Source of the DNA: a phage
Sequence record: PZ386965.1
Length of the DNA: 64,000 bases
Reading direction: 5' to 3' (one strand)
The notes under the pieces were generated by a model that worked only from the letters and a program-made list of their open reading frames with translations, ran no database searches and was not told where the DNA came from. A program made the translations under genes and the position numbers. The stretch's first letter is position 1. Each line of letters opens with the position of its first letter. Below are positions 6,110 through 61,204 of this stretch, piece after piece.

Positions 6110-6348
6110 TGGACGATTTAATTCAAGCTATTAAATCAAACGACCTCGTTGCTACTCGAAAGTTTTTTGAAAGTGCAATGGCAGAAAAAGCGGTTCGTTT
6201 GATTGAAGCACGCAAAGCAGAAATCGCTTCTCAATTTTTGATTGAAGGCGAAGAACCTGAAGAAGAAGAAAAGAAAGCTAAAGCTTCGGAAGACGACGCT
6301 GATGAAGGCGATGACGACGAAGACGAAGATGATGAGGACGATGAATAA
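6109..6348 (+). CDS. 67: prohead core protein (gp67)
   Basis: 79 aa with highly acidic C-terminal tail, T4 gp67-like; start overlaps gp20 stop. Confidence 0.85.
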
Positions 6349-6773
6349 TGTATCTTATCCCTGAATCTTATGAATTGGTACTCGAAAATGTCGAAGCACT
6401 TATTCCTGAAGCACAGGGCCGAATCGATGCATTGTCTTCTGCTCTCGATATTGACGATATAAATACTATTATCGAGAACATGCTTGAAACTGAAACGGAT
6501 TTAGCTGTTGCAATGGCTTCCATTATTAATGAAGAACAGTTAAATGAGTTTATCGTTAAACATGTTTCTTCTCGTGGTGAAGTCACCCGCACTAAAGACC
6601 GTAAAACTCGTGAACGTAACGCGTTCCAAACCACTGGTCTTTCTAAAGCAAAACGTAGACAAATCGCTCGTAAGGTCGTTAAAGCTAAAAAAGCTAACCC
6701 TTCAGGCCAAGTTAAAGGCTTGCGTAAGCGTAAAAAGGCTCTTAAACGTCGTAAAGCATTAGGATTAAGCTAA
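6348..6773 (+). CDS. 68: prohead core protein (gp68)
   Basis: 141 aa with basic C-terminus, same size and position as T4 gp68. Confidence 0.85.
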
Positions 6774-56600: not shown

Positions 56601-56624
56601 GGGAGACTTCGGTCTCCCATTTTT
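56601..56624 (+). terminator. terminator after gene 35
   Basis: GGGAGAC-TTCG-GTCTCCC followed by TTTTT. Confidence 0.75.
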
Positions 56625-56625
56625 G

Positions 56626-56633
56626 TATAAATA
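56626..56633 (+). promoter_or_regulatory. T4 late promoter for gene 36
   Basis: TATAAATA after the gene 35 terminator. Confidence 0.7.
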
Positions 56634-56657
56634 TGGTATACATATAAGGAGACAACT

Positions 56658-57328: not shown

Positions 57329-60300
57329 ATGGCTACATTAAAACAGATACAATTTAAAAGAAGCAAAGTGGCAGGAGTTAATCCTACTGCAGCACAATTA
57401 GCCGAAGGCGAATTAGCGATAAACTTAAAAGATCGAACTCTTTTTACTAAAGATGACCTCGGTAATATTATTAGCCTAGGCTTTGCTAAGGGCGGGGATA
57501 TTAACGGTAATGTAACTCAAACTGGCGATTATTTACAAAACGGCACGTATAATCTCAATGGAAATCAGTTTGTTTATGCAGGAAAATACATTGAATTTTT
57601 ACCTAAAACCACTGGAAATGGCGCTTGGGCTAACCAACATTCGAATAAAGCCCCTATCTTTACAGATTTAAGTTCAACTACTTCTGTTTCAGAATACCAT
57701 CCACTGATTAAACAACGCTATAAAGATGGAACTTTTTCTGCTGGTACATTAGTAAACGAAGGTAGTTTTAAATTCCATTATATTGATGAAACCGGGTCTT
57801 CAAAATACTGGACTTTTAATCGAAACGGTAATTTTCAAGTTGATTCCGGAAGTTTATTAGTATCTAATGGATATTTAGTTACTCAAAGTAATATTGAAAC
57901 TAAAGCTGGTTCTTTAATTGGTCCTAAAGTTATTACCAAAAATATCAATGTGAGCACTAAATCTTGGGACACTAATATTGATACTGCATATGATTTAGTT
58001 TCATTACCGACTTGGCACTATACTCCAACCGAAACGGATTTGGATACTAATGGTGTAAACTACCTTCGTAAATTCCGCGGACATGTTTCTTCTGCTATTT
58101 TCCATGAAGTTGCCGATGCTCGTTCAGGTAAACCACAGAATATTTCGTATTGGACGGGACGTAATGCTGAAGTTTATCAATGGTCTTATACCACAGATGG
58201 GCGTATGTCTGTTGCTAATTCGATAGGTATAGGTCTTGCTGATGTTGGTAACCAAGGACGTTATCCATTGGTTTCGTTTGGTAAAGGTATTGCAATTGGT
58301 GACAATGATACTGGTATTAAATGGGTTCGTGACGGGGTTATCGATTTAGTTGCGAATGGTATTTCTGCCGGCACTATTCTTAATAACGGTATTAACAGTA
58401 CTAAAAAATTGATGGTTGGTTATAGTCGAGATTCTGGTTCTACTTGGGATTACCCAAATAACAACCAAGCAATGTTTACTGCGCGTACCGATGTTGATGG
58501 TAATAATAGCGGTGACGGTCAGACTCATATTGGTTATAGCAGCAATGCCAAGATGTATCACTATTTCCGTGGCACTGGTCGTATGACCGTTAGTATGGGT
58601 GATGGGCTTCTTGTTGAGCCTGGCATTTTAGATATTAAAACTGGTTCAAATTCGTTAAATTTGCGTGCTGATGGTACCATCGCTTCTGTTCAAACGTTAA
58701 AACTTAATAATGGATTATATTTTAATGGTGATGGAACTAATGCTTCTCTAGTTTTTAAAGCGGCTTCAGGTATTGATGGCACCAAACAAATCCTTTGGGA
58801 AGGCGGCACTCGAGCAGGCCAGAATAAGAGTTATGTAACTGTTAAAGCATGGGGTAATGCCTTTAACGCATCTGGCGATAAATCTCGTGAAACCGTATTT
58901 GAAGTCTCTGATGGACAAGGTTGGTATTTCTACACTCAACGCCTGGCTCCAACTGATTCTGGAACCATAGGTCGTGTTACAACTTACTTCAATGGTGAGC
59001 TTCGTTCTAAAGGAAACCTAATAAGCGAAGGAATTCTTGAAGTTGATGGAACAAGCACACTAGCCGGTAATGTTACTATGTCTAACGGTTTGTTTGTTCA
59101 AGGTGGTTCTTCTATTACTGGACAAGTTAAAATCGGCGGAACGTTCGATGCATTAAGAATTTGGAACGCTGAATATGGTGCTATTTTCCGTCGTTCAGAG
59201 GCGGCATTGCATATTATCCCGACTCCTAAAGATGCTGGAGAATCAGGTGGAATAAGCAATCTCCGTCCATTAAGTATTAGTCTTAATAATGGTATGGTAC
59301 AAATGCGCCATTCTGTCACGTTAGGCGATGATGGCGCTGGCGGTAATATGATTACTGTGGACAATGATAACAAACTTGTTGTTGTTACTAGTCATAGTCG
59401 TATTTCTCCTAATTACCGTATGCAGGTAGGACAAGCAGCTTATATTGATGCTGAATGTACTGACACCGTTCGCCCGGCTGGTGCAGGGTCTTTTGCTTCA
59501 CAAAATAATGAAAACGTTCGTGCTCCGTTCTATATGAATATTAATCGCACAGATACAAGTACTTACGTTCCTATTTTAAAACAACGTTATGTTCAAGGAA
59601 ATAGCTGTTATTCTTTAGGTACTTTAATAAATGGCGGTAACTTCAGAGTTCATTATCATGAAGGTGGAGACGGAAGTTCAACAGGCGCAACTATAAAAGA
59701 TTTAGGATGGGAATTTACACGTTCTGGTGATTTTATATCTCCTAAGCGCATTTCTGCTGGGGGTTCAGTTTATTTAGGTACAGACGGTAACATTACTGGT
59801 GGTTCTGGTAATTTTGCCAACTTAAATAGTACAATTGAATCACTTAAAACTGATATTGTCTCAAGTTATCCAATTGGTGCTCCGATTCCTTGGCCTACTG
59901 ATACACCTCCTGAAGGCTATGCCATAATGGAAGGTCAAACATTTGATGCTGACTTGTATCCTAAGTTAGCTGCAGTGTATCCTTCCGGCGCTCTGCCTGA
60001 TATGCGTGGTCAGACGATTAAAGGTAAACCATCTGGGCGTGCTGTATTAAGTACAGAAGCAGACGGTGTTAAGTCACATAGCCATAGTGCAAGTGCATCA
60101 AGCACAGATTTGGGTACTAAGACCACTTCTAGTTTTGATTACGGTAGCAAAACGACTTCAAGCTTTGATTATGGTACTAAGACCAGTAATACCACTGGCA
60201 ACCATAACCATACAGTGAGTGGTAATACTAGTTCCGCTGGTGCGCACCAACACGCGCGTTCAGGTCCTCAGGTACAAGGCGGCATACCCACTAGCGTATT

Positions 60301-60622
60301 CTATGATGGATACAATAGTGCGGGTCCAAACGGTAACGCTAAATTCACTGCAACCGTGAGTGGTGCTACCGCATCGTCGAATATGGCCAAAACTTCTTCA
60401 GACGGTGCCCACACCCATAGTTGGTCAGGAACTACTAGCGCTACGGGTAACCATGCTCATACTGTCGGTATTGGTGCTCACACCCATTCGGTAGGTATTG
60501 GTGCTCATTCTCATACTGTTGCAATTGGTTCCCACGGACATACAATAACTGTAAATGCCACAGGAAATACAGAAAACACAGTTAAAAACGTTGCTTTTAA
60601 CTATATCGTTCGTTTAGCATAA
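57329..60622 (+). CDS. 37: long tail fiber distal subunit gp37 (receptor-binding)
   Basis: 1097 aa; C-terminal His-x-His repeats (GAHTHS, GAHSHT, GSHGHT) as in the T4 gp37 tip. Confidence 0.93.
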
Positions 60623-60627
60623 GGAGA

Positions 60628-60648
60628 AGGGACTTCGGTCCCTTTTTA
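60628..60648 (+). terminator. terminator after gene 37
   Basis: AGGGAC-TTCG-GTCCCT followed by TTTTT. Confidence 0.75.
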
Positions 60649-60652
60649 TAAT

Positions 60653-61204
60653 ATGAAACTCTATCACTATTATTTTGACACTAAAGAATTTTACAAAGAA
60701 GAAAATTATAAACCATTAAAAGGCGTAGGATTTCCGGCTCATTCGACACCAAAAAAACCTTTAGACCCTAAAGAAGGCTATGCTGTTATATTTGACGAAC
60801 GCGAGCAAGAATGGGTATATGTTGAAGACCATCGCGGAAAAACAGTATGGACATATGATAAGCAAAAAATTGTTATTGACACTCCAGGTGCTCTTCAAAA
60901 TGTCACTACAGAAGAACCAGGTGAATTTGACCTTTGGACTGACGACGGGTGGAAGGAAGATGAAGCGTATAAGCGGGTAGTTCAACGTGATAAGAAAATT
61001 CATGAACTCTATAAATTATTCAGTGTTTTAAGTTCTCTTATTGATGCAGAGGTTGCTAATAGAGAAGAAAAACGAAAATTTAAAGAGCTCAAAAAATTCT
61101 TTGCCCTTTTAGAAAAACATGAACATCTTGGCGGCGAATTCCCTAAATTCCCTGACCTTGAAAACAAATCTATTATCAAAGCGATTATAAATATCTTTAA
61201 GTAA
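60653..61204 (+). CDS. 38: tail fiber assembly chaperone gp38 (T4-type)
   Basis: 183 aa; N-terminus near-identical to T4 gp38. Confidence 0.9.
   Translation: MKLYHYYFDTKEFYKEENYKPLKGVGFPAHSTPKKPLDPKEGYAVIFDEREQEWVYVEDHRGKTVWTYDKQKIVIDTPGALQNVTTEEPGEFDLWTDDGWKEDEAYKRVVQRDKKIHELYKLFSVLSSLIDAEVANREEKRKFKELKKFFALLEKHEHLGGEFPKFPDLENKSIIKAIINIFK
61186..61193 (+). promoter_or_regulatory. late promoter for holin t
   Basis: TATAAATA inside the 3-prime end of gene 38. Confidence 0.55.

Follow-up and report, generated by a model that had tools for sequence, protein, structure and literature searches.

A common long-needle form of the T4-type distal tail fibre tip, with apparently paired repeat units, in a Mosigvirus-like phage

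The tail fibre genes of the phage in sequence record PZ386965.1 lie in a 64,000-nucleotide stretch of DNA (the window, to which all positions refer) and follow the canonical T-even order of gene 34 (1,291 amino acids), 35, 36, 37, 38 (183 amino acids), t holin and asiA. Gene 37, which encodes the distal subunit of the long tail fibre, occupies positions 57329–60622 on the plus strand, which also carries gene 38 and the fibre features described below. It is an ATG-initiated open reading frame of 1,097 amino acids plus stop, with a match to PHROG 1699 ('long tail fiber protein distal subunit'; E = 6.6e-267) and 58% identity over its full length to T4 gp37, a protein of 1,026 amino acids (NC_000866, 156542–159622). 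A first reading of the DNA, made without database searches (the sequence-only reading), had described gp37 as longer than its T4 counterpart, and these lengths confirm it. Among the relatives examined, gp37 ranges from 1,025 to 1,160 amino acids and a length of 1,097 is therefore unremarkable. The best full-length DNA match to the gene, in HX01, reaches only 90.1%, and the shaft of gp37 is mosaic among relatives that carry the same tip allele. The Mosigvirus phages mobillu and ATK47 match the window at 98% identity over 24 kb of structural genes. On these sequence comparisons, the source phage is assigned a Mosigvirus-like backbone carrying a gp37 tip of the T4/TuIb type, which is predicted to be receptor-binding.

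Gene 38 (60653–61204) encodes a tail-fibre assembly chaperone of the T4 type. Its product has the same length as T4 gp38 and is 66% identical to it over 179 amino acids (E = 3e-91); it matches PHROG 105 ('tail fiber assembly'; E = 5e-49), with phrog_7290 also among the top matches, and lies barely above the cut-off for the Pfam family Caudo_TAP (22.2 bits versus 22.1). The size and T4 similarity of the protein bear out its earlier assignment as a T4-type chaperone and not a T2-type adhesin. We also considered a fibre of the T2/T6/S16 type, in which a glycine-rich gp38 adhesin of about 260 amino acids with hypervariable segments forms the cap and a C-terminal chaperone is cleaved from gp37, and rejected it on the length of gp38, 183 amino acids, its assembly-family matches and its similarity to the T4 chaperone. 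The predicted adhesin is gp37 itself, with neither a gp38 cap nor cleavage at the C terminus.

Between genes 37 and 38 lies a hairpin with a C(UUCG)G loop followed by a U-run (60624–60647; folding energy of −14.3 kcal/mol, z = −3.8), and none of 200 shuffles folded as well. Some related records annotate a terminator at this site. A second C(UUCG)G-tetraloop hairpin with a U-run is found directly after gene 35 (56601–56618; −13.5 kcal/mol, with no shuffle as stable). Such hairpins were classically described in T4, and the two observed here are likely to be terminators or mRNA-stabilizing elements. Just upstream of gene 36, an 11-nucleotide unit, GTATAAATATG, is present in 1.9 copies (56625–56645), the first of which contains TATAAATA, a match to the T4 late-promoter consensus.

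The tip of gp37 can be laid out by homology to the crystallized T4 tip (PDB 2XGF, T4 gp37 residues 785–1026), which is matched by the last 278 amino acids (phmmer; residues 820–1097 against chain residues 2–242, E = 4e-90). Pfam PF03335 (Phage_fiber) also matches the tip, in six stretches, at 21.8 bits against a cut-off of 20. The collar, or knob, domain (residues 850–897; 59876–60019) is identified by Pfam PF07484 (Collar, E = 1.5e-11) and aligns to the collar of 2XGF. It is followed by His-x-His motif 1 (HSH, residues 917–919; 60077–60085), which is conserved with T4 H883/H885 and marks the base of the outgoing strand; by three tandem 30-nucleotide units on the outgoing needle strand (60113–60202), where the T4 alignment shows a gap of 10 amino acids; and by motifs 2 and 3 (HNH, residues 959–961, and HQH, residues 973–975; 60203–60253) on the distal outgoing strand, spaced by 14 amino acids as in T4. 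The head (tip) domain of 52 amino acids (residues 976–1027; 60254–60409), predicted to contact the receptor, aligns to the 34 amino acids of T4 932–965. A motif scan places motif 4 (HTH, residues 1028–1030; 60410–60418) first on the returning strand, where four 27-nucleotide His-box units with motifs 5–8 follow (60440–60547), opposite a gap of 9 amino acids in the T4 alignment. The remaining segment (60548–60619), which returns into the collar, is nearly identical in T4, TuIb, AV110 and AV118 and ends in NYIVRLA, as in T4.

The eight His-x-His motifs start at residues 917, 959, 973, 1028, 1042, 1051, 1060 and 1069, the last always being 28 residues from the C terminus in the tips examined. All seven motifs of T4 (starting at 883, 915, 929, 966, 980, 989 and 998) are conserved here, with one in addition. 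The homology to 2XGF, the collar preceding the needle, the GxHxH series on both strands and the T4-type gene 38 immediately downstream identify the tip as T4-type. A ninth His-x-His motif (RVHYHEG; residues 775–777, 59651–59659) lies upstream of the crystallized tip and is kept in T4 (RVHYHGG, residues 742–744); it could form a further, putative metal site in domain D9/D10.

The repeats sit at the 3′ end of the gp37 reading frame. The 30-nucleotide units run in frame at 60113–60142, 60143–60172 and 60173–60202, the third being degenerate, and the 27-nucleotide units start at 60440, 60467, 60494 and 60521, the fourth encoding AIGSHGHTI. Each family was recovered by repeat finding with the corresponding spacing of 30 or 27 nucleotides. 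Tandem Repeats Finder at a minimum score of 30 reported only the His-box array (period 27, 60452–60519) and not the 30-nucleotide repeat. In 200 shuffles of the window, adjacent 30-mers matching at 23 of 30 positions were never obtained, nor were adjacent 27-mers matching at 21 of 27. The sequence-only reading had placed a 30-nucleotide tandem repeat near the C terminus together with repeated, metal-binding GxHxH units. The repeat is present, with its start at 60113 rather than one base earlier at 60112; the GxHxH units form the four-unit 27-nucleotide array, and their metal-binding character agrees with the presence of the same motifs in the solved T4 tip. The first two 30-nucleotide copies share 23 of 30 nucleotides, the seven differences comprising five synonymous codon changes and one Thr-to-Ser codon; with 7 of 30 nucleotides different, recent slippage is rejected as the origin of the repeat. 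The sole other period-30 self-similarity in the window (6288–6347) falls in the acidic, Asp/Glu-rich C-terminal tail of an open reading frame ending at 6349 and is of low complexity, without a structured repeat.

T4 gp37 does not align collinearly in this region, and the difference in repeat number from T4 is confirmed. The tip is longer by 10 amino acids in the decapeptides, by 15 and by 3 within the head and by 9 among the His boxes. Upstream of the GNITGG landmark, gp37 exceeds T4 by 34 amino acids through scattered shaft indels in the mosaic region, and the tip exceeds it by 37. The greater length had been presented together with the repeats; it holds, but of the 71 extra residues no more than 19 are explained by one decapeptide (+10) and one VGIGAHxHx box (+9), the head contributing 18 and the shaft indels 34.

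Nor is the greater length distinctive. The 881-nucleotide tip is matched over 80% or more of its length in at least 134 phage records, from Mosigvirus and Tequatrovirus, and in the records listed it forms one collinear piece at 90–96% identity. For the segment on the outgoing strand, 184 records match at 80% identity or more; the sampled matches all span 186 nucleotides, versus 156 in T4 isolates. His-x-His spacings of 42, 14, 55, 14, 9, 9 and 9 are shared by TuIa, TuIb and AV110, and those of AV117 and AV118 are 42, 14, 35–37, 14, 9, 9 and 9; phiEC1 and VR25 have the long-needle architecture as well. Spread within Straboviridae was judged from BLAST searches of phage records, most proteins in the cluster search being prophage fibres of less than 480 amino acids and not full-length gp37. 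The long form is the common state and T4 a short outlier among Straboviridae with a T4-type fibre. The tip itself is an already known, common allele, gene 37 of TuIa and TuIb having been deposited in 1990. It would be extraordinary if the extra length and the repeats were an artefact of assembly or annotation in the window: collapse or expansion of near-identical 27-nucleotide units is a general risk with short reads (and a possible cause of the exceptional locus L003 described below), but the reading frame is intact and the same architecture, equal in length base for base, recurs in independent genomes, with the 881-nucleotide piece collinear in dozens of records and TuIa and TuIb dating from 1990.

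Each chain of the T4 structure extends from the knob as far as the tip before doubling back, the stem beginning in residues 882–931 and the tip comprising 932–959 (as reviewed), and seven irons are coordinated by His-x-His pairs. Motif mapping places the decapeptide array between motifs 1 and 2 on the outgoing strand and the nine-spaced His boxes opposite it on the returning strand; the two insertions relative to T4 therefore fall within one part of the stem, on its two opposite strands. We compared the two arrays across 155 distinct tips; the sources were protein clusters, phage records and 120 IMG/VR loci (chosen solely by three nine-spaced GxHxH boxes). Spacings of 32, 42 and 52 amino acids between motifs 1 and 2 correspond to two, three and four trailing His-box steps of 9 amino acids, in 71, 77 and 4 tips, respectively. 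Altogether 152 of the 155 obey the relation spacing = 12 + 10 × (number of 9-amino-acid His-box steps).

The three discordant tips are L003, L088 (where the deletion of two amino acids disrupts a His box) and a single case of parsing. Locus L003 (IMG/VR contig IMGVR_UViG_3300030021_000020) is the only clean exception, combining three outgoing units (42 amino acids) with two His-box steps; its head is identical to that of TuIa. Either this is a natural intermediate altered on one side only, or a 27-nucleotide repeat has collapsed in metagenome assembly; unless the contig is a case of such collapse, the coupling is therefore not absolute.

The gap occupied by the head varies from 33 to 56 amino acids independently of the unit counts, and related heads (82–84% identical) are found on short and long needles alike; both observations favour a constraint imposed by folding over simple linkage. 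The 52/4 class resembles the product of a distinct duplication, of 20 amino acids. The notion that the coupling merely reflects two inherited alleles is weakened by this duplication pattern and by the occurrence of related heads on both needle lengths, so that inheritance of a single linkage does not appear to explain it in full. A large subclass of prophage and siphophage fibres (IMG/VR loci L010, L027 and others; proteins P0079–P0118) lacks the distal 14-spaced His-x-His pair on both strands, with spacings of 32 or 42, then 33–49, then runs of 9, and five to six predicted metal sites. These fibres appear to be shortened at the head end, symmetrically.

The two extra units of the present tip appear to act as a pair, a stem module by which the needle gains length and one predicted metal site. 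We propose that each gp37 chain would exit the collar, reach the head domain and fold back, with the decapeptides on the outgoing strand and the GxHxH nonapeptides on the returning strand, and that histidines of the three chains would coordinate metal ions on the fibre axis. An extra decapeptide on the way out and an extra His box on the way back would then together form one additional stem layer, lengthening the needle by some 10 residues (by our estimate roughly 3 nm) and giving it a predicted eight metal sites instead of the seven in T4. We infer the pairing of the units in the fold from topology and co-variation. The choice of receptor would be made by the 52-residue head between the two arrays, and gp38 would act as a folding chaperone that is predicted to be absent from the fibre. 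Taken as a whole, the reading of a T4/TuIb-type tip with a paired stem layer, a receptor choice made by the head, OmpC as the likely receptor and gp38 as chaperone is one that we hold with high confidence. An AlphaFold2 monomer of the 278-residue tip, computed from a 52-sequence alignment, scored low (pLDDT 50.9, pTM 0.19), as would be anticipated for a trimer that is obligately intertwined and binds metal.

A stronger form of the pairing model, to which we give only tentative credence, is that the needle is built of quantized layers, each made up of a decapeptide on the outgoing strand, a His-box nonapeptide on the returning strand and a single metal ion, in two, three or four copies. A change of length would then need two matched duplications approximately 330 nucleotides apart, and L003 might represent one of the few one-sided intermediates to have survived.

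What the coupling reveals is a constraint on folding rather than any adaptive role. The additional layer may be a selectively neutral length polymorphism, tolerated as a matched pair with no effect on adsorption, a proposal that we consider a serious contender while leaning slightly against it. Both forms are abundant (among the distinct tips, 71 are short and 77 long), either length works with OmpC and related heads occur on either, all as neutrality would have it; the strong predominance of the long form in Straboviridae could be due to ancestry or to selection.

As for receptor recognition, the repeat region had been called the host-range determinant, a role that does not fit the position of the repeats: both arrays are stem modules and not the part that contacts the receptor, and the T4 residues that change binding to LPS and OmpC lie in the tip, at 932–959 (as reviewed), between the arrays. 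TuIa and TuIb have a common repeat architecture and different heads, and their receptors are OmpF and OmpC (TuIb also being listed as OmpC/LamB), respectively. OmpC is used with the short needle of T4 and with the long needle of AV117 and AV118, which are OmpC-dependent by experiment; AV110 is predicted to use OmpC. Receptor class accordingly tracks the head and not the repeat count, contrary to the suggestion that changes in repeat number alter receptor specificity. In a screen of 73 phages, all 17 OmpC-specific Straboviridae used T4-type gp37 C termini with highly variable tip subdomains.

That suggestion would make the tandem repeats a contingency-type tract, in which units are frequently gained or lost through slippage or unequal recombination and receptor specificity is altered as a result. 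Tetart is said to have found in 1996 that duplications near this region of gp37 can expand the host range of T4 in the laboratory, and three copy-number states (two, three and four) do occur in nature. The DNA copies, however, are only 77% identical and their differences mostly synonymous, which suggests an old duplication under purifying selection. A single copy number is found in at least 134–184 phage records, TuIa and TuIb, sequenced in 1990, among them; any change would have to be matched about 330 nucleotides away on the other needle strand; and receptor class follows the head. We therefore regard a contingency tract as very improbable.

The receptor prediction for the present phage turns on its head (residues 976–1027), which is 77% identical to that of AV110, 75% to TuIb, 52% to TuIa and 25% to T4; phiEC1 is 100% identical over a 101-residue query comprising the head and its flanks (residues 950–1050). 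Because of the 75–77% identity to TuIb and AV110, OmpC is the probable primary receptor. We word this with some caution because 13 of 52 head positions differ from TuIb and because OmpF is the receptor of TuIa, whose head is 52% identical.

For host-range prediction with T4-type gp37, the informative segment is the 52-residue head (60254–60409) and not the flanking repeats. The practical value of the analysis lies in annotation and in such prediction, the head here pointing to an OmpC-type, TuIb-like specificity. As a discovery its value is small, the tip being a prevalent allele of a textbook adhesin. The paired-unit rule is the only mildly new item, and it probably follows from the published fold; if not stated before, it would offer a simple design rule for engineering the reach and metal content of fibres.

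Among known systems, the same tip allele is carried by the Mosigvirus phages phiEC1, a20, HX01, JS09, AV110, mobillu and phi25-307 and by the Tequatrovirus phages phiD1 and p000v, in which the 881-nucleotide tip and the start of gene 38 are collinear at 93–96% identity. TuIb (X55191; Montag, Hashemolhosseini & Henning 1990) and TuIa (X55190) resemble the present gp37 in their His-x-His spacings (42, 14, 55, 14, 9, 9, 9), double decapeptide, four His-box units, 52-residue head and downstream T4-type gp38; they are Tequatrovirus phages, whereas the backbone here is Mosigvirus-like. The gene 37/38 fragments X55190 and X55191 (L148 and L144 in our set) are entered in GenBank with 'Tequatrovirus T4' as the organism, and matches to them can be misread as matches to T4.

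The T4 tip (2XGF; Bartual et al. 2010) likewise has a collar, an intertwined needle with axial His-x-His metal sites, a head, a C-terminal return and a dependence on the gp38 chaperone, features shared here by homology. It differs in having one decapeptide and one His box fewer, with seven His-x-His motifs versus eight, and an unrelated head of 34 amino acids in place of 52 (25% identity). Lambda Stf and prophage, Felixounavirus and P2-like fibres share the last approximately 215 amino acids, that is, the collar/needle module, and an adjacent Tfa/gp38-like chaperone, and fibres sharing this segment have been named the 'T4- and lambda-based RBP family' (PMC9659904). Their N-terminal parts are unrelated and many lack the distal 14-spaced pair, hence their five to six His-x-His motifs, yet they follow the same paired-unit rule.
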